This document shows, piece after piece, positions 1,148 to 52,347 of a stretch of 64,000 bases of DNA. Each line of letters opens with the position of its first letter. Position 1 is the stretch's first letter. A program made the position numbers and the translations under genes. Under the pieces are notes generated by a model. It saw only the letters and a list, made by a program, of their open reading frames with translations. It did no database searches and was not told the origin of the DNA. Origin of the DNA: a bacterium (lineage in GTDB: Bacteria > Patescibacteriota > Minisyncoccia > Minisyncoccales > CG1-02-41-26); the NCBI GenBank assembly GCA_030619905.1, contig JAUXAO010000001.1, forward strand, positions 119,051 to 183,050. The letters are read 5' to 3'.

Positions 1148-1978
1148 ATGAAATTAGATCTGCTTAGAAAATATAAGATTCATCCTAACAAGAGACTTGG
1201 ACAAAATTTCTTAATTTCAAAAACAATCCTGAGAGAAATCATTAAAGCAGCGAACCTTAAACCATCTGATATTATCTTGGAAATTGGTCCAGGGTTAGGA
1301 GTTCTTACCAAGGAGTTGGCTAAAAAAGTTAAAAAAGTTATTGCTATAGAAAAAGACAAAAAATTAACTGATATTTTAAAAAAGGAATTAGATAATGATA
1401 AAATTAAAAACATTCAAGTTATTAATCAAGATATCTTGAAATTTGAATCTTCAAGTTTTAATCTTAAGGAATCTTATAAACTCATTGCCAATCTGCCTTA
1501 TTATATTACAGGTCCGGTTATCAGAATGTTTTTAGAATCAACAAAGCCGCCCGAACTAATGGTTTTAATGGTCCAAAAAGAAGTAGGAAAAAGAATTTGT
1601 GCCCAGCCGCCAAAAATGTCCAAACTAGCTGTCTTTTCCCAATTTTACGGAAAGCCAGAAATTGTGAAATTTGTTTCTAAGAAATCTTTCCGGCCTCAAC
1701 CTAAAGTTGACAGTGTTATCCTTAGAATCGAGCCATTGGCTTTAACTGATAAAAGATTAATTAAAACTAATAGAAAACTGTTTTCTAAAATTGTCAGAGC
1801 TGGGTTTTCTCAGCCTAGAAAACAATTAATAAATAATTTTTCTAAATCTTTAGAGCTTTCTCGAGAAAAAGTTGAAAAATGGCTCAAAGAATATAAGATT
1901 CAACCAAATCAGAGAGCAGAAAGCTTAACTCTTGAAGATTGGATTGACCTTACTAATGGTTATTGTTCTTTATCTTAA
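1148..1978 (+). CDS. rsmA: 16S rRNA (adenine1518/1519-N6)-dimethyltransferase RsmA/KsgA
   Basis: LGQNFL motif, SAM-binding EIGPGLGVLT, NLPYYIT motif, typical length of 276 aa. An extended -10 (TGTTATAAT) lies just upstream. Confidence 0.93.
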   Translation: MKLDLLRKYKIHPNKRLGQNFLISKTILREIIKAANLKPSDIILEIGPGLGVLTKELAKKVKKVIAIEKDKKLTDILKKELDNDKIKNIQVINQDILKFESSSFNLKESYKLIANLPYYITGPVIRMFLESTKPPELMVLMVQKEVGKRICAQPPKMSKLAVFSQFYGKPEIVKFVSKKSFRPQPKVDSVILRIEPLALTDKRLIKTNRKLFSKIVRAGFSQPRKQLINNFSKSLELSREKVEKWLKEYKIQPNQRAESLTLEDWIDLTNGYCSLS

Positions 1979-2008
1979 ATTATTGTGATATAATAAAATA
2001 ATAAATTT

Positions 2009-3961: not shown

Positions 3962-3983
3962 TTTATTCGAGATTAGAAAAAAA

Positions 3984-4361
3984 ATGAATCAAGAACGAAA
4001 CAAAAAACTAATATTTCCTGAATATACTTCTGAAATTATATCCAAACTTATGGAAAAGTATAAGATAGATGAGAGTATTGACCAAATTTTTGATAAGATG
4101 GAAATAGGAGAGGAAACTAAAGGTAGAAAAATAGCAAATCTACTCCGAGAAATTGTTCATGGAGGACTTTCTAAGAAAGACTTATCCCTGGAGATAGAAA
4201 AAAGATTAAATATTTCGGAAATAAAAGCAACGAATTTAGCTAAAGACCTCCAAGAAAAAATTTTACTTCCAATGGAAACTACTCCTCCAAAAATTACCCC
4301 TCAGATAAAAGAAGGGGTTAAAAAAAAGCCAAAAGATATTTACCGAGAACCTATCAAATAA
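3984..4361 (+). CDS. Hypothetical small protein (125 aa)
   Basis: Clean ORF that fills the gap between neighbouring genes and is followed by a strong terminator. No recognisable motif. Confidence 0.5.
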   Translation: MNQERNKKLIFPEYTSEIISKLMEKYKIDESIDQIFDKMEIGEETKGRKIANLLREIVHGGLSKKDLSLEIEKRLNISEIKATNLAKDLQEKILLPMETTPPKITPQIKEGVKKKPKDIYREPIK

Positions 4362-20212: not shown

Positions 20213-21333
20213 CTCAATTTTATTGGCATTGATACGTAAATATAACTTTCATCTCCAACTGGTTTTAAAACACCAGGACCGTCTTCACCATTCAGTTCAA
20301 AAATAACTTCTGAACTTTTAATATTCTGTAATCCTGAAATAAGGAATCTATAATTAAAGGAAATCTCAATTGGTTCTCCTTTTATTTTTATTGGAAGGTA
20401 AGATTCATTTTTTCCTATTTCAGGACTTTCAGAGTATATTTTTAATTGATTATCCTTGGATTGGACAACTAATTTAACCTCTGAGATTTTACCACCAAAT
20501 AATCCTGCTTGTTTTAATTGATTTTGAAAATCATCTTTTTTAACTATAATCTGTGTCTTGTATTTCTTAGGAATAATCTCCTGATATTTAGGATATTCTC
20601 CTTCGATTAAACGAGAAAGAACCTGAACACGAGAATGAGATGTTTCTTCGTTTATATTCTCAAATAAAATTTGATTGGGGGAGAAGTAGATTATAGTATG
20701 ACCGTCTTTTTGACTTAAAATATTTATCAATTCTCTGATCGCATCTTGAGGAAGAATAAAAGAAACTTCCTTTTTTATTTCTTCTTTTAAAGTAATAGTT
20801 TTTTCAGCTAAACGAAAACTATCAGTTCCAACAACCTTTAATAGGTCTTTTTTAAAAGAAAAATAAATACCAGATATTTCAGGTCTTATCTGAGATATTG
20901 AAGGAATCTCAATAATTTGACTAAGAGCTTCTAAGAGTTTTTGGTTGGAAATTTTAACTATTTCTTCTTTTTCCATCTTCGGTATTATTGGAAACTCCTC
21001 AGGATCCATACCTTGAATCTGAGTTGCCTGATTTTTAGTTTCTAATATTAAATTTTTATCCTGGCTCCTTAATTCTATTTTTTCTTCTTTTAAAAGATTA
21101 ATTAAACTTGAGAAGAAAGTAGCTGGAACTGCAATTTTTCCCTCTTCTTTTATTTTAGCTAATACCCACCAACTAATACTTGTTTCTAAATTGGTAGTAT
21201 CAAGACGTAAAAAATTACCCTCACAAGATAATAAAACATTACTAAGAGCAGGTAAGGTTAAATTTTTCTTTGCTATTTTTTCAACAACCTCTAGTCCGTT
21301 TTTTAAATTGTTTTTTAAAATTTCAATTTTCAT
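20209..21333 (-). CDS. dnaN: DNA polymerase III beta sliding clamp
   Basis: 374 aa, three-domain clamp length, directly downstream of dnaA. N-terminal MKIEILKNNLKNGL and internal SFRLAEK pattern. Confidence 0.9.
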   Translation of the reverse strand: MKIEILKNNLKNGLEVVEKIAKKNLTLPALSNVLLSCEGNFLRLDTTNLETSISWWVLAKIKEEGKIAVPATFFSSLINLLKEEKIELRSQDKNLILETKNQATQIQGMDPEEFPIIPKMEKEEIVKISNQKLLEALSQIIEIPSISQIRPEISGIYFSFKKDLLKVVGTDSFRLAEKTITLKEEIKKEVSFILPQDAIRELINILSQKDGHTIIYFSPNQILFENINEETSHSRVQVLSRLIEGEYPKYQEIIPKKYKTQIIVKKDDFQNQLKQAGLFGGKISEVKLVVQSKDNQLKIYSESPEIGKNESYLPIKIKGEPIEISFNYRFLISGLQNIKSSEVIFELNGEDGPGVLKPVGDESYIYVSMPIKLS

Positions 21334-21551
21334 AATATTAATCTATATTAATTTATATTAAATTATTGTTGTTATTAGGATAATGATTTTGGGGAGAAAA
21401 AGACCTTTTTACTTATAAATTAAAGTAAAATTTGTTTTTAGATATGTTAAATAACTGTTTAAAAATGTCTTAATGGTAATAGGATAAGTTTTTAATAAAA
21501 TTAGTTAGGGATAATAATTCACGATTAGTCAACAGTTTTTTCACAGTTTTT
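21334..21551. other. AT-rich dnaA-dnaN spacer, candidate oriC segment
   Basis: 218 nt non-coding and very AT-rich. Three GGATAA-core near-DnaA-boxes (ttaggataa 21375-21383, ataggataa 21479-21487, tagggataa 21506-21514), each 2-3 mismatches from TGTGGATAA. Confidence 0.35.
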
Positions 21552-22919
21552 CTACAGACTTTCACTATAGATTCTTTGGCGGATTAAACCCATTTCATTT
21601 ATTAAACTCTCATTATTTTCTAATTCCTTAGATATTTTTTCACAAGCGTAAATAGCTGTAGTATGATCTTTACCACCGAATTTTCTTCCAATTGAGGGGT
21701 AAGATTCTTTCAATTCAAATCTTAATAGATACATTGCAATTTGACGCGGCCTGACAATTTCCTTTCTCCTCGTTAAGGCTAGAAGGTCTCCTCCTTTTAA
21801 GTCATAAAATTGAGCTACAGCTTGAACTATTTTTTTATAAGTGGTAGATCTAGCGGGAAAGTTAATTAAGTTGGATAAAAGCTTTTTAACAACATCAATA
21901 TCAGGAGATTTATTATTTAATTTTTTAAAAATTAATAATCTATTTAAAGCTCCTTCTAGCTCTCTAATATTTCGTTGGATATTTGAAACAATATACTCTA
22001 AAACGTCGGAATGTAATTCAATTCCCTTTTCTTCACATTTTGCTTTTAGTATTGCCATTCGAGTCTCAAAATCAGGAAGACTTATATCTGCAATCATTCC
22101 TCCTTCAAACCTTGATCTTAATCTTTCCTCTAACGCCGGAATAGCTTTTGGAGGCTTATCAGAAGAAAGAATTATTTGCTTGTTTGCTTCACGTAATGTA
22201 TTAAAGATGTGGAAAAACTCTTCCTGTGTTTTTTCTTTTCCAGCTAGAAATTGAGCATCGTCCATAATTAAAACATCTATCTCTCTGAGTTTTGTTTTTA
22301 AGTTTTCGATTTCATGTTCTCTAATTGCCCTCACTATTTCTGAAGTAAATCTTTCAGCAGGAACATATTTAACATTCTTTTTAGGAAAGTTTTCAACGAT
22401 CCGATTGCCAATAGCTTCTAGAAGATGAGTTTTTCCTAATCCTACTCCTCCATAAATAAATAAAGGATTATAAACTAGGCCGGGATTGTCTGAAATTGCC
22501 CAGGCAGCTGCATGAGCTAGTTCATTAAAAGAGCCGATTACAAAATTATCAAATCTATAGATAGGATTAAGGTTAGTCTCTTGGTCTATTTTAAATTCAT
22601 TAAAGCTGAGTTGATTTATCTCGAGTTCTTCCCGTTTTTTAGAAATAGACTTACTTTTGGTTCTTGAGGGTTTTTCTAGTTGAACAGTATAGTTTATTAT
22701 TTTAATACCATTATCTAAATTACGGAGTATTTTTAAAATAGTATTGTGATATTTACTGGAAAGCCATTCTTTAGAAAAGGAATTAGGAACAGAGACTATA
22801 ATTTCCCCGTCTTTCTTTGAAAGGATTTTAGTATTTCGGAACCAAGTGGCAAAATTGGCTCGAGATACACCAAATTGTATTTGGGCAAGAACAGCTTGCC
22901 AGAGTTCTTCCTTATCCAT
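21552..22919 (-). CDS. dnaA: Chromosomal replication initiator DnaA
   Basis: Walker A GGVGLGKTHLL, Walker B LIMDDAQFL, C-terminal DNA-binding signature GGKDHTTAIYACEKI. Confidence 0.97.
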   Translation of the reverse strand: MDKEELWQAVLAQIQFGVSRANFATWFRNTKILSKKDGEIIVSVPNSFSKEWLSSKYHNTILKILRNLDNGIKIINYTVQLEKPSRTKSKSISKKREELEINQLSFNEFKIDQETNLNPIYRFDNFVIGSFNELAHAAAWAISDNPGLVYNPLFIYGGVGLGKTHLLEAIGNRIVENFPKKNVKYVPAERFTSEIVRAIREHEIENLKTKLREIDVLIMDDAQFLAGKEKTQEEFFHIFNTLREANKQIILSSDKPPKAIPALEERLRSRFEGGMIADISLPDFETRMAILKAKCEEKGIELHSDVLEYIVSNIQRNIRELEGALNRLLIFKKLNNKSPDIDVVKKLLSNLINFPARSTTYKKIVQAVAQFYDLKGGDLLALTRRKEIVRPRQIAMYLLRFELKESYPSIGRKFGGKDHTTAIYACEKISKELENNESLINEMGLIRQRIYSESL

Positions 22920-23017
22920 AAAGCGATGATAAAGGGTTATATATTATTATCTTTCTATTTTTAGAATATAGCAAATGTCTCTAAAAATCAACCGAAAACA
23001 CATCCTTGTTAATAAGT

Positions 23018-23026
23018 TGTGGATAA
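23018..23026. promoter_or_regulatory. Perfect DnaA box (TGTGGATAA = TTATCCACA) in the dnaA/rpmH divergent spacer
   Basis: Exact 9-mer consensus read directly from the sequence, 99 nt upstream of the dnaA start and 52 nt upstream of rpmH. Confidence 0.6.
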
Positions 23027-23077
23027 ACTGTGAAGCCCAAGTTTGACTGAAAAATTATTTTTTGCTAATCTTTTAAT

Positions 23078-23212
23078 ATGTCTATAACTTATCAACCTAA
23101 AAAAAGGAAGAGAAAAAAGACGCATGGTTTTAGAACAAGAAGCAGGACAAAAGGAGGAACAAGGATTTTAGCTAGAAGGAGAGGAAAGGGAAGAAAGAGA
23201 ATAACGGTGTAG
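23078..23212 (+). CDS. rpmH: 50S ribosomal protein L34
   Basis: My own translation: [44 protein letters not shown] (44 aa, below the ORF-track cutoff). Canonical position upstream of rnpA. Confidence 0.95.
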
Positions 23213-23248
23213 GTTATTTCTTAATTTTTAATTTTATTATTCATTATT

Positions 23249-23593
23249 GTGTTAGCTAAGAAGTATTGCCTTAAAAGAAAAAAAGATTTTCAAAAAGTGA
23301 GTCAGAGAGGTAAGAAAATAGAAATAGACTTTTTGGTTCTAAAATTCTTACGAAACTCTCTTGATGTAACAAGAATTGGCTTTGTTGTTAGCCAGAAAGT
23401 TTCTAAAAAAGCATTTTTAAGAAACAAAATAAAACGAAGATTAAGAGAAATAATAAAGATTGATTTGTCTAATCTAGAGCCAGGATACGACTTGATTTTT
23501 TTTACTAAAAAGGAAATTATAGAGAAGGATTTTTTGGAGATAAAGAATGTAGTTGAACAAATTCTGGGAAAAGCAAAACTAACACATAAATAG
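23249..23593 (+). CDS. rnpA: RNase P protein component
   Basis: 114 aa and basic. Shows the conserved rpmH-rnpA-yidD-yidC synteny and an RNR-like KIKRRLREI motif. GTG start. Confidence 0.8.
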   Translation: MLAKKYCLKRKKDFQKVSQRGKKIEIDFLVLKFLRNSLDVTRIGFVVSQKVSKKAFLRNKIKRRLREIIKIDLSNLEPGYDLIFFTKKEIIEKDFLEIKNVVEQILGKAKLTHK

Positions 23594-23606
23594 ATAATTT
23601 ATAATT

Positions 23607-23816
23607 ATGCTTAGAAAAATATTTTTAAAGATAATAAAAGTATATCAAAAGTTTATTTCGCCTCTTTTAGGTGGAAGTTGTCGATTTTATCCTTCTTGTT
23701 CTGAATATAGTTATAAGACAATTGAAAAGTACGGGGCTTTAAAGGGAGGAGCTCTTTCTTTCTGGAGAATATTGAGATGTAACCCTTGGAACAAAGGAGG
23801 AATAGATTTACCATGA
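23607..23816 (+). CDS. yidD: Membrane protein insertion efficiency factor YidD
   Basis: [19 protein letters not shown] and [13 protein letters not shown] signatures; 69 aa. Confidence 0.93.
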
Positions 23817-26816: not shown

Positions 26817-28793
26817 TTATTCAAAGTTTTTTAATTCGTCTAAACTCTTTAAACTATGAAGAGAGTTCAGGTGCAATCCTTCTTCTATTATTTTTGACAT
26901 TACAGAAGTAACGATTTCTTCTAAATCTTCTGCGACTTTCCCGGCTAACTCTTTTGAGGTTAAATCAGTTATTTTCTCTCCAATATTCCAAGCTATTTTT
27001 TTAGAAGCTTTATTTGATATTATTTCAACTATTTTTTCAGTTCTGTCTTTCAAAATAAGGAAAAAATTCTCAGATAGAGTCTTCTCAATTTTTTCTTGGA
27101 GAACTTCTTCTAGAAGAATGGTAGAAAATTGATTAATTTGTTCTGAAGATAATTTACCTTGGAGTTTTCCATTTAAAACAACGAATAATTCTTCCTTGAT
27201 TTTATTTTCTATCCTGTCTGACAATCTTTTTTCATCTGAAGAAACAAATCCAAGGGTTTGAGGCATATTCTCGGTCAGGAATCCTTTTAAACTGATATCT
27301 AAAGTATCTGTTAGAGTTAGAGATAAGGCCTGAAACATTTTATCAGGAAGAAAATTGGTCAAAGTAGGATTGATAGTATTAAGAGCTTGCTCAGGAATAG
27401 AATCATCTGATTGAATATAGAATAGCTTATCAAGGAAAGTAGCATAAACTAAATCCATTAAATCACCTGGTAAGACTTCTCCAACACTGAAAGATAAAGT
27501 ATTTCTTAGGTTATCTGGCAGCAAATCTGCTAAATTCTCTGAGAGTGAATTGCTTATCTCAAATGGTAACAGGTTGATATCAGATAAAATAGTGAAAACT
27601 TCTTCTTTTATCTCGATAAAGAAAAGGTCGCTCAATTCATTTGGCAGTTCATCAATTAAAATAGTCTCTATCTGCTCAACTGAATTAATTGGAATATTAA
27701 CTCTTGTTCCTGTTTCTCCTTTTAGCTCTTCTATGATAACGGTTGCAATCTCCTGCCCAAGAATATTAGCTATTGCCTTAGAAATCTCATCAGTAATTTG
27801 AGGCGTAGCTTCTTCAACAGATTCTTGTATAATATTATCCATTTTATCTGCAGAAGGGATTAAATCTTCGAAGTCTAGCCCGGAAAGCACCTCCTTGGTA
27901 TTTTCCCTCATGATTATATTGAGATCTTCTGGGCATTGATTGGCAATAATTAGGAATGGTTCAAGGCGTGATGACCGTCTAATTACTTGTTCATTTTCAT
28001 CATCTCCTTTGTCAAAATAAATAGAGGTAGGATCCATAGCTGCACCCTGATCTATTTTTATAGTTGGTTCAGGCCAGGTGGAGAAAGTAGTTATTGCTAA
28101 CTTCTGTTTGTAAATATTTTCAATCAAATCTTTCTTTTTGAAAAAACTCTCATAATCAATAGCTTCTGAAGGTAGATTTACCATCATTTCCACCTTTTTC
28201 AATTTTACATAATCACTAAGTAAAGAAAGTTGAGCTACTAGTATTTCTTTTTGTTGAATCTTAAGATCAGCCATTGACTTCTCAATTTCAGCGATTTTTT
28301 TATCAATACCTTCTAAGTCACAATCTCGTTCAGGGCAGGCCACGGATAAGTTGCAGCTAGAGATTTCTATTGGGCAACCCAAAGATTTTGAGCAGGTGTT
28401 TATTGACGGACAGCCTGTTGCTTGGCAACAGCATCCATCTTCACAATTAATATCCTGACAAGCTGATTTTCCGCAGAGGCAATTATTGGTAAGTTCTTTT
28501 AATTCTTGAGAGAGATTTTTTAACTCTTCTGATTTATTTCTCACTCTTTCAACTTTCTTGATAATATTTTCAAGTTTTTCCTGGGCTTTTTCATTCAAAG
28601 TAATTTCTTCAACTATCTTTCCTATTGATGTCTGAAAAAAAACAAAGTCCCTTTCTTCAGAAGGAACTTCATCTTCTTCCTGTGGCTGAATAACGGTTGG
28701 TTTATTAATAATTTTTTCTAATATTAAATAAAAAGAAAGGACGACCAAGAGTCCTAAAAAAATATAAAGAATTTGTTTTTTTGTTTTTGTCAT
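26817..28793 (-). CDS. Large anchored protein: coiled coil, a cysteine cluster, and an acidic Leu-rich repeat region
   Basis: N-terminal TM, SIGKIVEE motif, LKELTNNCLCGKSACQDINCEDGCCCQATGCPSINTCSKSLGCPIEISSCNLSVACPERDCD. This is followed by about 450 aa with recurring LPxxL/acidic motifs (ELPNELSDLF, LLPDNLRNTL, NFLPDKMFQAL). Confidence 0.7.
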   Translation of the reverse strand: MTKTKKQILYIFLGLLVVLSFYLILEKIINKPTVIQPQEEDEVPSEERDFVFFQTSIGKIVEEITLNEKAQEKLENIIKKVERVRNKSEELKNLSQELKELTNNCLCGKSACQDINCEDGCCCQATGCPSINTCSKSLGCPIEISSCNLSVACPERDCDLEGIDKKIAEIEKSMADLKIQQKEILVAQLSLLSDYVKLKKVEMMVNLPSEAIDYESFFKKKDLIENIYKQKLAITTFSTWPEPTIKIDQGAAMDPTSIYFDKGDDENEQVIRRSSRLEPFLIIANQCPEDLNIIMRENTKEVLSGLDFEDLIPSADKMDNIIQESVEEATPQITDEISKAIANILGQEIATVIIEELKGETGTRVNIPINSVEQIETILIDELPNELSDLFFIEIKEEVFTILSDINLLPFEISNSLSENLADLLPDNLRNTLSFSVGEVLPGDLMDLVYATFLDKLFYIQSDDSIPEQALNTINPTLTNFLPDKMFQALSLTLTDTLDISLKGFLTENMPQTLGFVSSDEKRLSDRIENKIKEELFVVLNGKLQGKLSSEQINQFSTILLEEVLQEKIEKTLSENFFLILKDRTEKIVEIISNKASKKIAWNIGEKITDLTSKELAGKVAEDLEEIVTSVMSKIIEEGLHLNSLHSLKSLDELKNFE

Positions 28794-28819
28794 TATAACT
28801 AGATTGCCAATTGTCTTTC

Positions 28820-29191
28820 TTAATCAGATGCTAGTTCGAATAGCACCGCTGCTATCCATAAAGGAGCAAAGCTAGAAACAACAGGAATCATTTCAAAAAT
28901 CATGCATGCAGGTTTCAACCATTTAAACTTCTTTGCAAATTTTACTGCTTTTTTTATTCCAGCAGCTGTTTTTCCAGGAACAGTTATTTTCTTTGACCTA
29001 GTATACATCCAGAGACCGATGAAAATCAGAGCAATGATGTCCAGAATAACTGAGAGGATTTGTCCAGCAACCGGTATAAGTTCAACAAAAAATTCTCCGG
29101 CATCAATAAAAACAGCGAAACTTATCATCATAACCGCTTCCGGGGTTAATAGTTTTTGTATCAGTCCTGTTGATTCTGCTTCTTGGGCCAT
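28820..29191 (-). CDS. Small three-helix membrane protein in the T4SS-like operon
   Basis: 123 aa with hydrophobic segments (AVMMISFAVFI, ILSVILDIIALIFIGLWMY, VVSSFAPLWIAAVLF) and a basic loop KKAVKFAKKFKW. The gap to virB4 is 1 nt. Confidence 0.6.
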   Translation of the reverse strand: MAQEAESTGLIQKLLTPEAVMMISFAVFIDAGEFFVELIPVAGQILSVILDIIALIFIGLWMYTRSKKITVPGKTAAGIKKAVKFAKKFKWLKPACMIFEMIPVVSSFAPLWIAAVLFELASD

Positions 29192-29192
29192 T

Positions 29193-30977
29193 TTATGATA
29201 TTATTTTTTTGGCTTTTTTTATAGCTAGTACTTGTTCAGGTGAGGTTGTAATTATTTGGTCTTCAGTGTAAGAGGCAGTGATTTTAATAGCAATATGTTT
29301 CTGTCCAGCAAAGAAGACTCCTTCACCCACAGATGATTCAAGCAAAAGATATTTTTCTTGGTCAGTTAAATTAAAGGTTTTTTGGACATCATTCACAATA
29401 GCCGGGCTCTGTTTCATTAGAAGCTGTAAAGACGAATTAGTAATAATCGGCTGTCCGTAAGAGGATTTCATAAAATCGGAGACATCTTGAGTGATTGTGG
29501 ATACCCCTAGCCAGTATTTTCTTGCTCTTTTACAAATACCATATAGAAATGAAGCGCCGTCCTCAGATTGCATTATCCACCAGGCCTCATCGACAACTAA
29601 AATTCTTTTTTTCAGAGAAGAACGGACTATATTCCAGATATATCTTAAAATTATGAACATTGCTATTGGCCTTAATTCTTCCTCCATATCTCTTATCCCA
29701 AAAACCACAAACTTGTTTTCCATAGAAATATTTGAAGGCTGGTTAAAGAAATCAGCATAACTGCCTTTGGTAAATTTTCTTACTCTTTCGACTAAGGATT
29801 CTGTTCCTTTCATACTTTCTAGAACAGCTTCAAAATCAGAAAGTAAAGGAATATTTTTTTGCCAATTTAGAGGATCGCTTTCCGGAGTAATATCTTTAGC
29901 AGCGTAGGTTTCAGTTAATGCCTGGTCAATAATAGCGTCTTCTCTTGGAGTTAATCCTCCTAACATGATTCTTAAAAGTCCGACTAAGTTTATAACATTT
30001 GATTTTAAAACATTTGCTGGTTTTTCATCCTCCCTGGGTATAGGCAGATCAAAAGGGTTGATGTGATCAGGAGATGTTAAAGAGATTTTGAAGTAAGAAC
30101 CTCCAACTGCATCGGACAAAAACTTGTATTCATTTTCCGGATCAATTATTATTGTATCTACTCCTTGCATCAAATATCTTAAGATTTCCAGTTTAACAGC
30201 ATAAGATTTACCACTACCGGCTTTTCCAAAGGTTACCATGTTTGCGTTTTCCAGAGTAAATCTATCAAATAAAACTAGAGAATTGTTATGCATATTTATT
30301 CCATAGAGAATGCCTTCGTTGGCGCTGAGATCAGAAGAAATAAAAGGAAATGTGCTTGATAAGGGAGCCGTGTTCATTGTGGTATGGACTGCAAGTTTGT
30401 CTAAACCATATGGGCTGCAGCTGACAAAACCTTCTTTTTGACGGAAAAGAGCTGGTCTTATATAAATTAGACGAGCTTCAAAAATTGATCGGAGTACAGT
30501 TTCAATTTTTCTCAATTCTTTTTGGGCATTAGCATAAACTGTAATATAAAGACCAAACTTAAAAATTCTCTCTCTAGCTGTTTGGAGGCTGTCTCTTAGG
30601 GTCTCTATATCTTGATAGGCAGTTTCTAAAATAGGATCGCGAATTAATCCTTTTTCTTGCCTTTCCATCATTTCTGCCTGGACTTCAGTTATCTTCTTTC
30701 GTAGTTTTTTCAGTACTGTTTCAGATCTTACTGGATGGATATGAAAGGAAATATCCATAGGGTATTGGAGATTTATCACCGGAGAAAGCCAGCCGGTTGA
30801 AAGATATCTTGGATAAGAGAAAATAAAAAAAGATTTAGAAAAACGCTCCCCCAGTCTTAAAAAATTTTGTCTTGCCTCAACTGAAGAAGGAGCAATAATA
30901 TCCTCGAGATTAATGAGGCTAGGTTCTAATCCTGTTTCTCCAATTTCTTCTTTTTTCTTTAAAAAAGGCAGCTTCAT
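29193..30977 (-). CDS. virB4: VirB4/TraC-type type IV secretion ATPase
   Basis: Walker A TFGKAGSGKSY, Walker B RILVVDEAWW, downstream RARKYWLGVSTITQDVSDF and NSSLQLLMKQ motifs. N-terminal VirB4-type domain (FSYPRYLSTGWLSPV). Confidence 0.88.
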   Translation of the reverse strand: MKLPFLKKKEEIGETGLEPSLINLEDIIAPSSVEARQNFLRLGERFSKSFFIFSYPRYLSTGWLSPVINLQYPMDISFHIHPVRSETVLKKLRKKITEVQAEMMERQEKGLIRDPILETAYQDIETLRDSLQTARERIFKFGLYITVYANAQKELRKIETVLRSIFEARLIYIRPALFRQKEGFVSCSPYGLDKLAVHTTMNTAPLSSTFPFISSDLSANEGILYGINMHNNSLVLFDRFTLENANMVTFGKAGSGKSYAVKLEILRYLMQGVDTIIIDPENEYKFLSDAVGGSYFKISLTSPDHINPFDLPIPREDEKPANVLKSNVINLVGLLRIMLGGLTPREDAIIDQALTETYAAKDITPESDPLNWQKNIPLLSDFEAVLESMKGTESLVERVRKFTKGSYADFFNQPSNISMENKFVVFGIRDMEEELRPIAMFIILRYIWNIVRSSLKKRILVVDEAWWIMQSEDGASFLYGICKRARKYWLGVSTITQDVSDFMKSSYGQPIITNSSLQLLMKQSPAIVNDVQKTFNLTDQEKYLLLESSVGEGVFFAGQKHIAIKITASYTEDQIITTSPEQVLAIKKAKKIIS

Positions 30978-45097: not shown

Positions 45098-46534
45098 ATG
45101 ATATCTAAAAGAGATTTCAAAAAATTATCAGAATATTTATGGGAAGTGCCCAAAAGTTTCAGACTGGATATGCAAGTTCCAGCTCGGATTTATGCTTCGG
45201 AAAAAATACTTCAAGCTGTAGAAGAGAGAGCTTTGAATCAGTTAGTAAATATCACTACCCTGCCTGGCATTACGAAATATGCCATAGGAATGCCTGATAT
45301 TCACTCGGGCTATGGTCCACCGATTGGCGGAGTAGGAGCAATGAGATTGTCTGAGGGGATCATTTCTCCCGGTTTTGTAGGATATGATGAAAATTGCGGA
45401 GTCAGATTATTGAAGTCAGAATGCACTGACAAAGAAATTGAAACCCATTTAGATAAATTGGCTAGCGAAATCCAAAAAGAAGTGCCATCTGGTTTAGGAA
45501 AAGGAAGGCAGATAAAATTAAGCATTGAGCAAATTGACAAAATTTTAGAAAAAGGAGTTCCGGAATTAGTGAGTCAAGGATACGGAGAGGAGGAAGATAT
45601 TGAAAATTGCGAAGAAGGAGGAAAAATGCCAGAAGCAGATGCTTCTTGTGTTTCCCAAAGAGCAAGAATGAGGGGGAGAGACCAGGTAGGGACCTTGGGT
45701 AGTGGAAATCATTTTTGTGAACTGCAAAAAGTAGAAGAAATTTATGAGGAAAAAGTAGCTGAAGCTTTTGGATTATTTAAAAATCAGGTTGTGATTATGA
45801 TCCATACAGGCTCAAGAGGTCTCGGCCATCAAAATTGTACAGATTATTTAAAAGTAACAGCCCAGGCTCTAATAAAATACAAAATTGAACTTCCTGACCG
45901 AGAATTAGCCTGTGTTCCTTTTAATTCTTTGGAAGGACAAAGATTTTTTAAAGCAATGTCCGCTGCTTGTAATTTTGCCTGGTCGAATAGACATATGATA
46001 ACTTTTTATGTAAGAAAATCTTGGAAATCAGTTTTAGGAAAAGGAAATTTGAAGCTACTTTATGATGTTGCTCATAATATTGCTAAGATTGAAGAACATG
46101 AAGTTGACGGCCAAAGAATAAAATTGATTGTCCATCGTAAAGGGGCGACAAGAGCCTTTCCTGTAGGTCATCCAGATGTCCCTCAAAAATATAGAGAAGT
46201 TGGTCAGCCTGTTCTGATTCCAGGCACAATGGGTACTGCTTCTTATGTTTGCGTAGGAACAGAGAAGTCAAAAGAAGCATGGTATACAGTAAATCACGGG
46301 GCTGGGCGTACTATGTCACGGCATGCGGCAATGAGGACGGTTAGAGGGGAAGAGGTGGTTAGAAGATTAAAAGAAAAAGGAATTTTAGTTAAATGTCGGT
46401 CAATACGAGGCATTGCTGAAGAAGCGCCGATGGCTTACAAAAATATTGAAGATATCGTTGAGGTCGTACATAATGCTGGTCTCTCAAAAAAAGTCGCTAA
46501 ACTTGTTCCTTTAGCCGTAATAAAAGGAGAATAA
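45098..46534 (+). CDS. rtcB: RNA 3'-phosphate ligase RtcB
   Basis: GYDENCGVR, GSGNHFCE, HTGSRGLGHQ, HNIA, NHGAGR motifs; 478 aa. Confidence 0.96.
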   Translation: MISKRDFKKLSEYLWEVPKSFRLDMQVPARIYASEKILQAVEERALNQLVNITTLPGITKYAIGMPDIHSGYGPPIGGVGAMRLSEGIISPGFVGYDENCGVRLLKSECTDKEIETHLDKLASEIQKEVPSGLGKGRQIKLSIEQIDKILEKGVPELVSQGYGEEEDIENCEEGGKMPEADASCVSQRARMRGRDQVGTLGSGNHFCELQKVEEIYEEKVAEAFGLFKNQVVIMIHTGSRGLGHQNCTDYLKVTAQALIKYKIELPDRELACVPFNSLEGQRFFKAMSAACNFAWSNRHMITFYVRKSWKSVLGKGNLKLLYDVAHNIAKIEEHEVDGQRIKLIVHRKGATRAFPVGHPDVPQKYREVGQPVLIPGTMGTASYVCVGTEKSKEAWYTVNHGAGRTMSRHAAMRTVRGEEVVRRLKEKGILVKCRSIRGIAEEAPMAYKNIEDIVEVVHNAGLSKKVAKLVPLAVIKGE

Positions 46535-46619
46535 AATATACTTTCATAATTACTCATTAAAAACCGCCTGTTTTTTATAGGCAGTTTTTATTTTTAAACT
46601 GTTTTAGCTAGAATATCAA

Positions 46620-48212
46620 CTAAATCTTTTTAATCATATAAGTATCTTTCAATTTATACTTTAATTTTCGATAATATACACGAACTCCTATTCCGGAAAT
46701 CACAGCCACTTTATTTATTTTAAATTCTTCTTTAGCAATTTTTTCCGCTTCCTTTATTAATTTCTTGCCCAAGCCTTTATGCTGAATTGATAGAGATTTT
46801 CCGTCTACCGGCGTCATTTGACCGTAAGTATGAACCTCTCTGATAATAACACTCTTTTTTAAAACCGGAAGGATATAACCGGAGGGAAAGCGGAGGCGTA
46901 AAAGAGCATAAAGTTTCTTTCTTTTTCTGTTCTCAAAACTCAAAAATATTTCTTTTCCGTTGGAAGCCTGATAATCTTCCCGAAAAAGATAAATTTTCTC
47001 ATCGGGTTTGTAATCTTCCCTGACTTCCCTACATCTTATACATTTACATTTTAATCCTTTTTCTTTCATTTTCTCCTGAACTACCTCTCTTAGGTTTGAT
47101 ATCTTAACTCCACCAGCAATGATATCTTTTGAAGGGATATCTCTGATAACTCTTTGGATTCTGCACCAGAATGGAATTTCTTTTTTAATTTCAGTTAAAA
47201 GTTTAATCAATTTTTTTTCAGAATAAGGTTTAAACTTATTTTTTTTGTACAATCTATGTAAAGGTGCTTCTTTGACTAAAGCTAAAGGATAAATTTTTAA
47301 GAGGTCAGGTTGAAAATCAGGGTTGGAAAAAAGCTCTTTAAACATTCTTATATCTCTTTTGAAATTAGAACCCGGTAAATTCGGCATTATTTGGTAAGAA
47401 ACTTTAAATCCAGCATCCTTCAAGAGTTGTGTTGCTTTTATAGTCGCCTTAATATTATGCCCTCTTTTGTTTAGTTTTAAAACATCATCATAAATACTTT
47501 GAACTCCTAATTCTACTCTGGTTATTCCAAGTTTTCTCATTCTTTTAATTTCTTTAAGATCTATATAATCAGGTCTTGTTTCCACAGTAATCCCAATGAT
47601 CCGACACTTTGCCTTTTCATTCTTTTTTTGAAGTTCTTTTAAGTTTTTTGTTTTGATTTTTGAGTTTGATATATATTCATTCACTGTTTTAAAACATTTT
47701 TTTATAAACCAAGTTTGATACTGCTTTGGATAATAACTCCAGGTGCCTCCGATTATTCTTAATTCAATTTTATCTATTGGGTGACCGGTCTTTTCTAAAC
47801 TTTTTAATCTAGTTTGAACTTGAAGGTAAGGATTGAAATTAGTTAAAATTGCTCTTTGAACAGCTGGTTCCCCTTTCAAATAACTTTTTGGAATGCCTTT
47901 TTGACTTGGGCAGTAAATACACTTTCCCGGACATGGATATGGCTTTGTTAAAACCGAGATATTGACAATTCCTGAAAGAGAGCGGATAGGTCTAGTCCGA
48001 AGGAGTCTTTTTAAAAGTTTGTTTTGGATTAGAGTTCTTTCTTCAACCAATTTATGATAAACTTTAAGTAGTTCTACATTGCTTGGACAGAGAATTCCAT
48101 ATTTTTTTGCCATCTTTCTTTTAAAACAATCCAAATCTTCCCGATTTATAGTTCGACTCTTGATTAATTCGTAAATAATTGATTCGATTATTTTTATCCG
48201 TGGCATTCTCAT
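46620..48212 (-). CDS. elp3: Elp3-family radical-SAM / GNAT enzyme (tRNA U34 cm5 modification type)
   Basis: Radical-SAM Cys motif PCPGKCIYCP, TIM-barrel core (RIIGGTW, RVELGVQS), and a C-terminal GNAT with HKGLGKKLIKEAEKIA; 530 aa. Confidence 0.9.
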   Translation of the reverse strand: MRMPRIKIIESIIYELIKSRTINREDLDCFKRKMAKKYGILCPSNVELLKVYHKLVEERTLIQNKLLKRLLRTRPIRSLSGIVNISVLTKPYPCPGKCIYCPSQKGIPKSYLKGEPAVQRAILTNFNPYLQVQTRLKSLEKTGHPIDKIELRIIGGTWSYYPKQYQTWFIKKCFKTVNEYISNSKIKTKNLKELQKKNEKAKCRIIGITVETRPDYIDLKEIKRMRKLGITRVELGVQSIYDDVLKLNKRGHNIKATIKATQLLKDAGFKVSYQIMPNLPGSNFKRDIRMFKELFSNPDFQPDLLKIYPLALVKEAPLHRLYKKNKFKPYSEKKLIKLLTEIKKEIPFWCRIQRVIRDIPSKDIIAGGVKISNLREVVQEKMKEKGLKCKCIRCREVREDYKPDEKIYLFREDYQASNGKEIFLSFENRKRKKLYALLRLRFPSGYILPVLKKSVIIREVHTYGQMTPVDGKSLSIQHKGLGKKLIKEAEKIAKEEFKINKVAVISGIGVRVYYRKLKYKLKDTYMIKKI

Positions 48213-48234
48213 ATTATTCGTAGATTGATATTAT

Positions 48235-48921
48235 ATGAAGCAGAAATACGCCGAACAGTTATTAAAAAAAACCAAAGAGGGATATGATAAGATTGCCGAG
48301 GAGTTTTCAACAACCAGAGAAGAAGTTTGGGAGGAAATGAATTTTCTTTTTGATGATTATGTAATACCAGGCGATAAGATTTTAGATTTGGGTTGCGGCA
48401 ATGGCCGTTTTTTTGAACTTTTAGAAGACAAAGATGTTAATTACATTGGGGTCGATTTTTCCGAAAAGTTGATTGAGATTGCGAAAAAGAAATATCCAAA
48501 AGTGAAATTTCAAGTAGCTGATGCTTTAGACTTACCTTTTCCTAATAATTATTTTGATAAAATCTACAGTATTGCTGTTTTACATCACATTCCTTCAAAA
48601 GAACTCCGGCTGCAGTTTTTAAAAGAAGCTCGAAGAGTTTTGAAACCAGATGGTTTTTTAATTTTAACAGCTTGGAAGCTAAAATCCAAGAAAGACTGGA
48701 ACTTGTTTTTAAAATACACAATCCTGAAATTAATTGGTAAATTAGAGCGAGGAGATGTTTTTCAACCTTGGGGTAAAAAAACGGAGAGGTACTTTCATCT
48801 TTTTTCTGAAGAAGAATTGATGGATTTAGCAAAAGAAGTCAAGTTTAAGATTATAAAAGAAGGAATTGTAACAAATGAAAAAGGAAACCGCAGAAATATT
48901 TATTTAGTAGTTGAGAAGTGA
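48235..48921 (+). CDS. Class I SAM-dependent methyltransferase, Trm9/ALKBH8-MT-like
   Basis: Motif I ILDLGCGNGRF, then SIAVLHHIPSKELRLQFLKEARRVLKPDGFLILTAW and DVFQPWGKKTERYFHLFSEEEL, which resemble Trm9 signature regions. Divergent from elp3. Confidence 0.65.
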   Translation: MKQKYAEQLLKKTKEGYDKIAEEFSTTREEVWEEMNFLFDDYVIPGDKILDLGCGNGRFFELLEDKDVNYIGVDFSEKLIEIAKKKYPKVKFQVADALDLPFPNNYFDKIYSIAVLHHIPSKELRLQFLKEARRVLKPDGFLILTAWKLKSKKDWNLFLKYTILKLIGKLERGDVFQPWGKKTERYFHLFSEEELMDLAKEVKFKIIKEGIVTNEKGNRRNIYLVVEK

Positions 48922-48933
48922 GCAAATAATTTG

Positions 48934-49005
48934 GCCCTTGTAGTTCAACGGACAGAACATAGTCCTCCGGAGACTGAGATGGAAGTTCGATTCTTCCCAG
49001 GGGCA
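48934..49005 (+). tRNA. tRNA-Arg (anticodon CCG)
   Basis: Manual cloverleaf: acceptor GCCCTTG/CAGGGGC, D-arm GTTC-AACGGACA-GAAC, anticodon arm TAGTC-CTCCGGA-GACTG, T-arm GGAAG-TTCGATT-CTTCC, discriminator A. CCA is not encoded. Confidence 0.88.
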
Positions 49006-49039
49006 TCCAAAACAAATATTATAAAATTATTATATTTTT

Positions 49040-50842
49040 ATGTGTGGAATAGTTGGTTACATAGGTAAAAGAGAAGCTTTTCCAATCTTATTATCAGGAC
49101 TAAAACGGCTTTTGTACAGAGGATATGACAGCTATGGTTTTGCTTTGATAAACAATGGAAAAGAGATAGTTTGTTTTAAAAAACCAGGGAAATTAGATAA
49201 CTGGGAATCAAGATTATTAAAGATGAAATTTGAAGGGAAGATTGGCATCGCTCATAGTCGCTGGTCAACGCATGGAGAACCGTCTGAACTCAATGCTCAT
49301 CCCCACTGGGACTGTCAGAAAAATATCTACTTGGTTCATAATGGAATAATTGAAAATTACCAAACTTTGAAAAGTATTTTAGAGAAAGAAGGGCATAAAA
49401 TAATTTCTGAGACGGACACAGAAATTATAGTCCATCTGATAGAAAAGTTTTATAAAGGCAATCTCGAAAGAGCAGTGATGGAAGCATTAAAACTTTTAGA
49501 AGGAGCATATGGTCTAGCTGTAGTTCATAAAAATCAAAATAGGATCATAGCAGCTAGAAAAGGTTCACCTTTGATCATAGGTATTGGCAAAGGAGAGATG
49601 TTTGTAGCTTCTGATGCAGCCGCAATTTTGAAACATACGAAGAAAGTTGTTTATCTAAAAGATGGAGAAGTAGCCAATATTACTGCAAACAAATTCCGGG
49701 TTAGAAATTTAGACGGGAAAAAAGTTGAGAAAGAAGTTGAAGAGATTAAATGGACTCTGGGCCAGATAGAAAAAAAAGGATTTAAACATTTTATGCTCAA
49801 AGAGATATTTGAACAACCGGAGTCATTGGAAAATGCTCTCCGGGGGCGGCTCAAGCAGTCTAAGATAAAATTATCTTTAGATATTGATATAAATTCCATC
49901 AAGAGAATTATCGTAGTATCTTGTGGAACAAGTTGGCATTCAGCTCTTATTACTAAACATTTAATAGAAGGTTTTACTAGAATTCCTGTCGAAGTGGATT
50001 ATGCCTCGGAGTTTAGATATAGAAGACCAGTGGTAAAAAAAGGAGATTTGGTGGTTGGAATCTCTCAATCAGGAGAGACTGCTGATACTCTCGGGGCGAT
50101 GAGAGAAGCAAAGGCAAGAGGAGCTAAGACATTAGGGATAATAAATGTAGTTGGTTCAACTATTTCTAGAGAAGTGGATTCAGGTATATTTTTACATGCT
50201 GGTCCGGAGATAGGAGTGGCTTCTACCAAGGCCTTTACTTCTCAATTGATGACCTTGTCTCTTTTGGCTTTATATATTCAGCAGGAGAGAGGGAACAAGG
50301 TAAACAGGGAGATTTTAAGAGAATTAAAGAATATTCCTTCAAAAGTTGAAAAGATTCTTGAAAATACTAGAGCTATAAAAAAAATAGCCAAAAAATTCAA
50401 AGACAGCAAGGGGTTTCTTTATTTGGGAAGAGGAGTCAATTTCCCAATTGCCTTAGAAGGTGCTTTAAAATTGAAAGAAATTTCTTATATCCATGCCGAA
50501 GGATATCCTGCTGGTGAAATGAAACACGGTCCTATTGCTTTGATTGACAAAAATATGCCGGTTCTATTCTTAGCCACTAAAAGTTGTACATATGATAAAA
50601 TCATGAGCAATATTCAGGAAATTAAAGCCAGGAAAGGGAAGGTGATTGCTGTGGTCAATAGAAATGATAAAAGAATTAGGAAAATTGCTGATTATATTAT
50701 TGAAGTTCCTAAGACAGAGGAATATTTGTCCCCGATATTAAATACCATTTCCTTGCAACTTTTGGCTTACCACATTGCTGATTTGAGAGGGATAGACCCA
50801 GATTACCCGAGGCACCTAGCCAAAAGCGTAACATGCGAGTAA
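49040..50842 (+). CDS. glmS: Glutamine--fructose-6-phosphate aminotransferase
   Basis: MCGIVGY N-terminal nucleophile, two SIS domains (SQSGETADT), and a C-terminal AKSVTCE; 600 aa. Confidence 0.97.
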   Translation: MCGIVGYIGKREAFPILLSGLKRLLYRGYDSYGFALINNGKEIVCFKKPGKLDNWESRLLKMKFEGKIGIAHSRWSTHGEPSELNAHPHWDCQKNIYLVHNGIIENYQTLKSILEKEGHKIISETDTEIIVHLIEKFYKGNLERAVMEALKLLEGAYGLAVVHKNQNRIIAARKGSPLIIGIGKGEMFVASDAAAILKHTKKVVYLKDGEVANITANKFRVRNLDGKKVEKEVEEIKWTLGQIEKKGFKHFMLKEIFEQPESLENALRGRLKQSKIKLSLDIDINSIKRIIVVSCGTSWHSALITKHLIEGFTRIPVEVDYASEFRYRRPVVKKGDLVVGISQSGETADTLGAMREAKARGAKTLGIINVVGSTISREVDSGIFLHAGPEIGVASTKAFTSQLMTLSLLALYIQQERGNKVNREILRELKNIPSKVEKILENTRAIKKIAKKFKDSKGFLYLGRGVNFPIALEGALKLKEISYIHAEGYPAGEMKHGPIALIDKNMPVLFLATKSCTYDKIMSNIQEIKARKGKVIAVVNRNDKRIRKIADYIIEVPKTEEYLSPILNTISLQLLAYHIADLRGIDPDYPRHLAKSVTCE

Positions 50843-50868: not shown

Positions 50869-52347
50869 ATGGAAATTAAATTTATTGCGGGCATCAAAAA
50901 AGGCAATGCAAAAGGTACCGGTTTTTTCTATATCCCTGAAGAGAGATCAACTCTATTAAGTCTAGGCGTAAGAGTGAATGTAAAGTTGCTCAATAGTCTC
51001 TATTTCTTCGCTAAAGTAATAAAGTATGGTAATAGATTAGGTATATATGTGCCCAAACGCCCTATGGAGGAAAACAATCTATTAGATAAAAATGTTAAGA
51101 TTCAGATAAATGAGATCGATGGATTTTATTCAAAAATGTGTTCCGATGGCAGGATATATCTTCCTCAAGATATCGTCAAAAAACAAAAAATTGAGCGAAA
51201 CGAGATTATTTTAATCAGGGGAATAAAAAATGATAAAGTTATTAGGAAAAAATATTCTAAAGTACAAATTACTAATAGAGAGAAGAGACATCAGATGGAG
51301 TATACTTGTGTTTTTGACAAGAAATTTTATGGTAAAAATCTTATATTCAAAGTTGAAAATAAAACACCAAAAAATTGGAAGCCAAAGTTCAACATAAATA
51401 TAATAGATACCTCTTTAGAAAAAATGCATTATGGATTTATTGACAGAAATTTATCAATCGCTTTTTACGGAAGTAAAATTCCAGTAATTGTGAGTAATAA
51501 GTTTAAATATTCTGATATAGCATTTTATTTAGGAGCATATTTCTCAGACGGGACGAAAATAGGAAATAGTTGGGCAATTTGTGCTTCTACTTTTAAACAA
51601 GCAAAATATTATTGGGAAATACACAATTTGTTAATTAAAGATTCAAAACCAGAATTTACAATCTCTTATACAAATATTTATAATGTTGGTTATGATGAAA
51701 TTATAGAAAGGTTAACCAATAAATGGGCAGATAAAACCGGTATTAAAATACAAAAATTTAGGATAAGAAAAACAACTGGGACGATTCTTACTAAATGGAA
51801 TAAATATGGAACTTTAATTATTAGGGAATCTAGACAAATTTTATTAGATTTTTATAATAGTTTATTAAAATCTCTAATAAGAGAAATTTTATCAAAGAGA
51901 AATAAAAGATTAGCTTTTGACTTTATTTGTGGTGTGATGGAAGGAGATGGAGGTATACCCTCTAAAACACACGGACATATATTGATTCATACCAATAAAG
52001 AAGAAGCTTATATTTTAGGATCCATTTTAAGAGTGGCGGATATAAAATTTAAATTAGGTAAAAATGGTGAAAATAAATATTTTTTAAGGATTGGTTCGCT
52101 TGAAGTATTAAGGAATTTCCACCTCTTAAAAGATAAAATTTTTGAGTTATATCCTAGACGAAGAAAAGACTTCTTTGAACGATTTAAAAAGGTGGGAGCA
52201 GTAAAGTTCTTAGGTGGGAATCACCAATCTACTAATTGGGTAAAAGCCTGGCTCAGAGAAAATGGTTTTGCTGATAGAAATTATAAGATTACAGAAAAAG
52301 GTTTGAGGATACATTATTATATCCAAAATTATGTTACAACAAGATAA
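50869..52347 (+). CDS. Free-standing LAGLIDADG endonuclease-family protein with N-terminal AbrB/SpoVT-like segments
   Basis: LAGLIDADG motifs FYLGAYFSDGTK and FICGVMEGDGGI. N-terminal GNRLGIYVPKRPMEEN and DGRIYLPQDIVKKQKIERNEIILI resemble looped-hinge-helix DNA binders. Confidence 0.75.
   Translation: MEIKFIAGIKKGNAKGTGFFYIPEERSTLLSLGVRVNVKLLNSLYFFAKVIKYGNRLGIYVPKRPMEENNLLDKNVKIQINEIDGFYSKMCSDGRIYLPQDIVKKQKIERNEIILIRGIKNDKVIRKKYSKVQITNREKRHQMEYTCVFDKKFYGKNLIFKVENKTPKNWKPKFNINIIDTSLEKMHYGFIDRNLSIAFYGSKIPVIVSNKFKYSDIAFYLGAYFSDGTKIGNSWAICASTFKQAKYYWEIHNLLIKDSKPEFTISYTNIYNVGYDEIIERLTNKWADKTGIKIQKFRIRKTTGTILTKWNKYGTLIIRESRQILLDFYNSLLKSLIREILSKRNKRLAFDFICGVMEGDGGIPSKTHGHILIHTNKEEAYILGSILRVADIKFKLGKNGENKYFLRIGSLEVLRNFHLLKDKIFELYPRRRKDFFERFKKVGAVKFLGGNHQSTNWVKAWLRENGFADRNYKITEKGLRIHYYIQNYVTTR

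Follow-up and report, generated by a model that had tools for sequence, protein, structure and literature searches.

A divergent gene pair for Elp3 and a predicted Trm9-family methyltransferase in a genome of the Patescibacteria

By the textbook division, bacteria modify the wobble uridine of tRNA (U34) with MnmE and MnmG, producing 5-carboxymethylaminomethyluridine (cmnm5U) and 5-methylaminomethyluridine (mnm5U), whereas archaea and eukaryotes use Elp3, with or without Trm9, and produce 5-carboxymethyluridine (cm5U), 5-methoxycarbonylmethyluridine (mcm5U) or 5-carbamoylmethyluridine (ncm5U). To our knowledge, the bacterial Elp3 proteins studied so far are isolated cases. Here we analyse a stretch of 64,000 nt (contig JAUXAO010000001.1, positions 119,051 to 183,050; ‘the window’ below) attributed to a bacterium of the Patescibacteria, also called the Candidate Phyla Radiation (CPR). 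In the window a gene for Elp3 and a gene for a methyltransferase dependent on S-adenosylmethionine (SAM) stand head to head, 22 nt apart from start codon to start codon (Table 1). The two predicted proteins likely form a U34 module that works like the archaeal and eukaryotic Elongator-Trm9 system, making cm5U34 and then mcm5U34.

The best solved relative of the window Elp3 is MinElp3 of Methanocaldococcus infernus (PDB 6IA8). Both are single polypeptides of ~520-530 amino acids (aa) that combine radical-SAM and KAT domains and carry a basic N-terminal extension; the window protein differs in its bacterial host and in the pairing of its gene with a Trm9 gene. The extension gives MinElp3 high tRNA affinity, and DmcElp3 of Dehalococcoides mccartyi (PDB 5L7J) is without these ~75 residues (PMC6367351). 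DmcElp3 is the nearest bacterial parallel, an Elp3 acting without other Elongator subunits; unlike it, the window protein has the extension, and in the literature examined no Trm9 partner is described for D. mccartyi.

As for the second enzyme, Elp3 and Trm9 genes are clustered in Sulfolobus solfataricus (PMC2584109), and Trm9-Trm112 of Haloferax volcanii forms mcm5U both in vivo and in vitro (PMC6144793). These archaeal systems share with the window a prokaryotic Elp3 and a Trm9 homologue, encoded by neighbouring genes in Sulfolobus; in our case the host is bacterial and the genes form a head-to-head divergent pair conserved across many CPR lineages. The bacterial MnmE/MnmG route (with MnmC) also acts on C5 of U34 and serves decoding in the same way, but its enzymes (a GTPase and an FAD/folate enzyme) are unrelated and use other chemistry.

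A 2019 paper spoke of the Dehalococcoides Elp3 as ‘a rare example’ (PMC6367351), and one of 2026 places Elp3 in ‘numerous bacteria’ (PMC13315578). In the literature searched there was no paper linking Elp3 or Trm9 with Patescibacteria/CPR or describing a bacterial Trm9, and searches on MnmE or MnmG together with Patescibacteria, Parcubacteria or Candidate Phyla Radiation returned nothing relevant. Neither the chemistry nor the two enzyme families are new as such, all being known from eukaryotes and archaea. What appears to be new is a Trm9 orthologue in a bacterium, together with how widely and how tightly the pair is kept across the CPR.

The two predicted tRNA-modifying proteins

The Elp3 translation matches the NCBIfam model TIGR01211 (ELP3) with 583.8 bits (cut-off 350), residues 13-530 covering positions 3-522 of the 522 in the model. 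Pfam assigns Radical_SAM (65.3 bits) and Radical_SAM_C. Among solved structures MinElp3 (6ia8) scores best (1.5e-145, 488.8 bits, residues 20-529 aligned); DmcElp3 (5l7j) reaches 1e-110 and 373.5 bits in an alignment that starts only at residue 76, and mouse, human and yeast Elp3 give about 350-369 bits. The window protein is therefore closer to the archaeal enzyme than to DmcElp3.

All four motifs of MinElp3 are there, those for the Fe-S cluster, SAM and acetyl-CoA and the Cys-rich linker. The radical-SAM triad C94-x3-C98-x2-C101 (CPGKCIYC at residue 94) is spaced Cx3Cx2C, compared with Cx4Cx2C in MinElp3; SAM-binding GGTW is at residue 155, the Cys-rich linker CKCIRCRE at residue 389, and the acetyl-CoA motif QHKGLG at residue 477, where MinElp3 has QHMGYG in the alignment. 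These motifs are kept in 69-75 of 76 relatives (the triad in 75, GGT in 69, the acetyl-CoA motif in 74). Residues 1-75 are basic (19 K/R versus 8 D/E), and this N-terminal region of ~75 residues corresponds to the tRNA-binding extension of the archaeal/eukaryotic type. The protein is apparently a functional, full-length enzyme of that type, predicted to carboxymethylate tRNA uridine 34 with its radical-SAM and GNAT/KAT domains.

Since short and divergent methyltransferases make distance trees unreliable, the methyltransferase was assigned to a family by discrimination with hidden Markov models (HMMs) and controls instead of a distance tree. Pfam gave only the generic Methyltransf_11 (93.5 bits), Methyltransf_25 and Methyltransf_31, with a partial match to Ubie_methyltran (profile positions 5-156 of 233). 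Membership in the UbiE/MenG family was considered and rejected: TIGR01934 scored 69.4 bits against a cut-off of 158.35, and the PRK00216 variants 36-67 bits against cut-offs of 216-378.

In a phmmer search of the PDB, Trm9 of Yarrowia lipolytica (5cm2_Z) was the best single-stretch match, over methyltransferase residues 49-209. A family profile built from 43 sequences put 5cm2_Z first overall (5.1e-19; profile 25-215 aligned with chain 2-185). When the C-terminal half (residues 102-228), which takes in little of the shared Rossmann core, was used alone, Trm9 came first with 1.5e-6 versus 3.8e-4 for the next match, a ~250-fold difference.

The Yarrowia protein served to collect 120 fungal Trm9 sequences, and from these an HMM was made. 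It scored the window methyltransferase at 103.1 bits (E = 1.4e-31, HMM positions 18-220 of 235) and 79 relatives at medians of 86 and 92 bits, and matched no other ORF (open reading frame) of the window. The controls were 51 generic Methyltransf_11 proteins, returned by our metagenome scan (described below) owing to the shared LDLGCG core; their median was 22 and their maximum 38 bits, with coverage of the core only. In the reverse test, an HMM of the CPR proteins gave fungal Trm9 a median of 123.5 bits, versus a median of 75 for the generic controls. The AlphaFold2 model of the methyltransferase (pLDDT 93) has a Rossmann-like strand order, and Foldseek ranked Trm9 second among PDB structures (E = 4.3e-18, TM 0.66/0.81). 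In JGI records two homologues are named TRM9 and several ‘UbiE’.

Mutational work on yeast Trm9 allows the comparison to be made residue by residue. Activity needs R29, D72, H116, W145, W168, R241, Y243 and N271; H24, K31, Q149 and D270 are dispensable, and H115 has a mild effect only (Letoquart et al., PMC4678810). In a joint alignment R28, D74, H117, H118 and W147 of the window methyltransferase correspond to R29, D72, H115, H116 and W145 of Saccharomyces cerevisiae Trm9, and W179, R185, F187 and N221 to W168, R241, Y243 and N271. Eight of these nine SAM-binding/active-site residues are identical, and the ninth, Y243, is conservatively replaced by Phe.

The window methyltransferase contains LDLGCGNG (motif I). 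Among 74 relatives the SAM-binding D74 is invariant; the equivalent of R29 is kept in 73, of H116 in 68, of W145 in 74 and of N271 in 64. The W168 position holds Trp in 61 and Phe in 10, the R241 position Arg in 56, and the Y243 position Tyr in 32 and Phe in 24. The positions of Q149 and D270, dispensable in yeast, vary across the family. Conservation thus follows functional importance in Trm9.

The window methyltransferase also shares with Trm9/ALKBH8 (Y. lipolytica Trm9-Trm112, PDB 5CM2; S. cerevisiae Trm9) the class I fold and several sequence features: FS-x-TR-xxx-W in the N-terminal part, HH following strand 4, W147, PW, and the strand with RY(Y/F)H. Two stretches quoted in an earlier account of this DNA lie in the same translation, AVLHHIPSKELRLQFLKEARRVLKPDG at residues 114-140 and DVFQPWGKKTERYFHLF at residues 174-190. 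On the other hand, identity with Trm9 is only ~26%, a loop before the N271 equivalent has an insertion of ~7 residues, and residues 152-170 are unmatched in the Trm9 chain.

On the rank of Trm9 in the PDB profile search, the result with the C-terminal half, the HMM discrimination, the catalytic residues and the modelled structure, we conclude that the protein is probably a Trm9-family enzyme, a predicted tRNA (carboxymethyluridine34-5-O)-methyltransferase. That earlier account, a preliminary description made from the letters of the window, had called Elp3 full-length and had noted a resemblance of the methyltransferase to Trm9/ALKBH8, with grouping among UbiE or other class I enzymes as the opposite outcome. 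The length of Elp3 is borne out by TIGR01211; such grouping was not seen, the fungal Trm9 HMM and the residues favouring Trm9.

Conservation of the divergent pair

Relatives of Elp3 were collected in a limited scan of one genome per GTDB species. The scan gave 80 loci, nearly all Patescibacteria-like and 78 of them not labelled archaeal. Bacterial Elp3, described as rare in the preliminary description, is therefore common in this lineage, as far as one limited scan can tell. With at least 750 nt available upstream of Elp3 in 75 loci, the methyltransferase gene was divergent and directly adjacent in 46 and within 6 kb in 7 more. The adjacent pair is seen, among other labelled lineages, in Nealsonbacteria, Paceibacterota, Minisyncoccales (locus L018), Moranbacteria, Kuenenbacteria, Magasanikbacteria and Peribacteria. 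Loci of Falkowbacteria and several others have no methyltransferase near Elp3.

A scan of metagenomes from the side of the methyltransferase found 27 full-length relatives with 40-65% identity. Elp3 was divergent and adjacent in 24 of the 25 that had enough flanking sequence. In the control set of 51 generic methyltransferases, Elp3 occurred within 4 kb in a single locus (L157). This adjacency was judged a coincidence: the contig is high-GC and probably haloarchaeal, and its methyltransferase, which from its appearance only we take to be of the trans-aconitate (Tam) type, is without the HH motif. In all-against-all clustering of the ORFs neighbouring Elp3, the methyltransferase led by a wide margin as a conserved neighbour, with 50 loci versus 22 for the next real gene family. 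With dozens of species-level genomes and of metagenome contigs sharing it, the pairing lies far outside what chance would produce; the synteny in other genomes on which the preliminary description had made its reading depend is seen from either gene.

The preliminary description had given the divergent arrangement, the 22-nt gap and the two quoted peptides, and these are accurate to the base. The gap is equally short in relatives (median about -10 to -17 nt, extrapolated). A scan of positions 46400-49200 for promoters and terminators gave no excess over shuffled sequence (9 consensus promoter sites found, 9.3 expected), and for this reason no promoter is assigned at the locus. With a spacer of only 22 nt, any promoters of the pair must overlap coding regions. 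The conserved back-to-back layout with its short spacer probably couples expression of the two genes.

Several related loci depart from the simple pair. On one metagenome contig (L098) Elp3 (2426-4000, minus strand) is followed, after 2 nt, by a gene for an MnmA-type tRNA 2-thiouridylase with all three tRNA_Me_trans domains (1342-2424, minus strand), and a Trm9-like gene is divergent on the other side of Elp3. This three-gene cluster suggests 5-methoxycarbonylmethyl-2-thiouridine (mcm5s2U) as a product, and MnmA adjoining Elp3, in this single instance, ties the Elp3 cluster to U34. In two Parcubacteria loci that have no Trm9-like gene, a PP-loop ATPase gene takes the place next to Elp3 on its upstream side, in divergent orientation (L017:5362-5964 and L027:4776-5402, both on the minus strand); the protein matches Pfam DUF7411 (238-243 bits) and has an N-terminal SGGKDS motif. 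That it takes over the downstream step instead of Trm9, thiolating or amidating the U34 side chain, is pure conjecture.

In L014 (5328-5887) the Trm9-like gene beside an intact Elp3 seems to be decaying: its tblastn match is split (query 52-124 and 126-227) and only a 90-aa ORF is left. Full-length methyltransferase relatives with no Elp3 nearby are found at L104:1034-1870, L108:3992-4693 and L109:3968-4735. In the first of these the HH motif reads NH and the arginine of RY-x-H is lost; this relative may thus be a paralogue that has acquired another role. The third comes from an organism of 57% GC and keeps the FS-x-TR and HH motifs; the methyltransferase family thus reaches outside low-GC CPR. 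Finally, a contig labelled ‘Candidatus Pacearchaeota archaeon’ (L033, DAOLWP010000002.1) carries the same divergent pair, with 55% identity to the window protein for Elp3 and 49% for the Trm9-like protein. It is either a mis-binned CPR contig or a case of transfer between DPANN and CPR.

The proposed pathway and its alternatives

In the pathway that we consider likely, the stand-alone Elp3 would bind the anticodon stem-loop, aided by its basic N-terminal extension, and cleave SAM at the [4Fe-4S] cluster to form a 5'-deoxyadenosyl radical. An acetyl unit, taken from acetyl-CoA in the KAT domain, would then be attached to C5 of U34 to give cm5U34; family membership and the intact motifs argue for this step. 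The methyltransferase would use SAM to methyl-esterify the carboxyl group of cm5U34, giving mcm5U34, as suggested by its Trm9-family membership, its conserved catalytic residues and the near-obligate linkage of the genes. In a third and most speculative step, an MnmA encoded elsewhere could add the 2-thio group on tRNAs of the Lys/Glu/Gln type and so produce mcm5s2U34. The preliminary description had put forward an mcm5U34 pathway of archaeal/eukaryotic style in a bacterium, and membership in the Trm9 family together with conserved synteny supports it.

A number of points weigh against this pathway. About 30% of the related Elp3 loci have no methyltransferase within 6 kb. In the whole-protein profile search the margin was narrow (71.9 bits for Trm9 versus 70.1 for generic methyltransferases), and the top Foldseek match of the model was 3sm3, an uncharacterised methyltransferase of Methanosarcina (considered as a possible Trm9 and rejected, its alignment being without the HH and RY-x-H motifs). 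The methyltransferase has Phe (F187) at the position of yeast Tyr243. A search for a Trm112-like zinc-knuckle ORF found none in the window (motif scan and 20 small intergenic ORFs) or in the 1.07 Mb of related loci, though Trm9 of Haloferax, like that of eukaryotes, needs Trm112. The U34 chemistry of Haloferax in vivo is also more complex than plain mcm5U (PMC6144793), so that the final product could differ from mcm5U here as well.

The alternative that survives best leaves the Elp3-Trm9 pathway as it is and concerns its place in the cell: the pair may not replace normal MnmE/MnmG but operate beside them, perhaps serving only some of the tRNAs. We regard such coexistence as quite conceivable, if somewhat short of probable. 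The gene cluster of L098 speaks for it, though indirectly, since MnmA, of the bacterial route to 2-thiolated U34, stands there beside Elp3 and bacterial and archaeal-type U34 enzymes are mixed. As the preliminary description had stated for MnmE and MnmG, the window encodes neither of them, and no MnmA, by Pfam scans of 35 of its larger ORFs and motif scans of all six frames. MnmE/MnmG motifs were likewise absent from ~1.07 Mb of related loci, weak evidence against coexistence in that this amounts to about one genome-equivalent and is biased to a single locus. The opposite proposal, that a large part of the Patescibacteria/CPR builds its C5-modified U34 by archaeal-type Elp3-Trm9 instead of MnmE/MnmG, is possible and, in our view, rather doubtful.

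It is improbable, in our estimate, that the methyltransferase is coupled to Elp3 without making mcm5U, acting on another atom or intermediate or leading to a different final nucleoside. Deletion of Trm9 in H. volcanii was not followed by accumulation of cm5U, and unidentified U34 derivatives exist there (PMC6144793). In the CPR proteins, the change of Tyr243 to F187, the replacement of R241 and of H115/H116 in a minority of family members and the absence of Trm112 from the window point the same way. Against these stand R29, H116, R241, N271 and W145, for which a role in placing the carboxylate of cm5U and the uracil ring has been proposed and which are all kept here and in most relatives, and the match to the Trm9 HMM, which spans nearly the full length.

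Far less credible still is a generic or UbiE-like methyltransferase of small molecules or proteins, set beside Elp3 by the coincidence of a compact genome: the generic Pfam assignments, the ‘UbiE’ names in JGI and the near-equal generic scores in the whole-protein PDB search would fit it, but the UbiE/MenG models all stay below cut-off (best 69 vs 158 bits), the Trm9 HMM discriminates strongly, Trm9-specific catalytic residues are kept, two JGI homologues are already named TRM9 and linkage to Elp3 is 24/25 versus 1/51 in generic controls.

If the Elp3-Trm9 pathway is as proposed, conservation of the pair across many related genomes means that this group of the CPR probably uses the wobble chemistry of archaea and eukaryotes. 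The conserved pair provides a specific and testable prediction, the presence of mcm5U in bacteria. Minisyncoccus archaeiphilus, a cultured member of the Minisyncoccales (PMC12281837), may offer test material, as the pair occurs in a genome of this order (L018). The family assignment would also correct the routine annotation of hundreds of CPR proteins as ‘UbiE / class I methyltransferase’ and would add a character of the translation apparatus to the archaea-like traits of the CPR. Should replacement of MnmE/MnmG be true, mcm5(s2)U would be a bacterial nucleoside for the first time; the pair would then have been transferred anciently from archaea as a unit, or the pathway would predate the last universal common ancestor and have been retained here and lost in other bacteria.

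Host and other genes of the window

For both proteins, the nearest relatives carry the labels Nealsonbacteria, Paceibacterales/Paceibacterota, Minisyncoccales or Parcubacteria. The window is bacterial, since it encodes DnaA, DnaN, PBP1A and a Mur ligase; further genes are those for KsgA, ribosomal proteins L34 and S20, and YidD. G+C content is ~33% throughout. From its gene content and these relatives the host is identified as a bacterium of the Patescibacteria (CPR) and not an archaeon.

Table 1. Positions of the gene pair and of other features in the window
Feature	Position	Strand	Basis or remark
Elp3 gene	46620..48212	minus	530-aa ORF (ORF list)
Trm9-family class I SAM-dependent methyltransferase gene (predicted)	48235..48921	plus	228-aa ORF (ORF list)
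Intergenic spacer, 22 nt, between the two divergent start codons	48213..48234		sequence inspected
tRNA-Arg(CCG)	48934..49005	plus	ARAGORN; Rfam RF00005, 61.4 bits
RtcB RNA ligase	45098-46534	plus	Pfam 549.7 bits; convergent with Elp3, 85 nt from Elp3 stop codon
DnaA	21552-22919	minus
DnaN	20209-21333	minus
Class A penicillin-binding protein (PBP1A)	18083-20212

The single tRNA gene of the 64-kb window found by ARAGORN and Rfam, for tRNA-Arg(CCG), starts 12 nt after the stop codon of the methyltransferase. The preliminary description had remarked on this tRNA beside the pair; its position is correct, and its relevance to the pathway falls away, because with C34 in place of U34 it cannot be a substrate of Elp3. 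About 10 close relatives (among them L001, L002, L003, L006, L008, L013, L015, L023 and L029) have this tRNA directly behind the methyltransferase gene, sometimes accompanied by tRNA-Ser(CGA); more distant relatives do not. As part of the module it was rejected on both grounds, C34 and retention only in close relatives. Its placement probably reflects lineage-level synteny or co-transcription. RtcB, on the other side of Elp3, was also considered as a member of a tRNA cluster and rejected, as it does not recur beside Elp3 in the 80 related loci.

Region 20209-23816 resembles a classic replication-origin neighbourhood, the minus strand encoding DnaN and DnaA and the plus strand rpmH (L34) and yidD; cumulative GC skew has no turn there. 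Between 5642 and 13345 there are three tandem T4SS_pilin-like proteins of ~420-430 aa with a T2SSE-type ATPase downstream (12050-13345). A TraG/VirB4-like P-loop ATPase (29193-30977, in region 26817-30977) is encoded on the strand opposite to the pilin and T2SSE genes. Together these genes fit the type IV pilus/secretion machinery described for Patescibacteria.

Two ORFs on the plus strand may be free-standing and homing-endonuclease-like. One (14256-15596) has helix-turn-helix domains and a weak match to LAGLIDADG_3. The other (50869-52347; 492 aa) matches no Pfam family and shows by eye the LAGLIDADG-like motifs YLGAYFSDGTK and FICGVMEGDGG. The latter ORF, GlmS and a GNAT gene lie between the tRNA gene and a pair of SLOG and EF-Tu-domain-2-like genes; in L002 this SLOG / EF-Tu-domain-2-like pair lies directly 3' of the tRNA.

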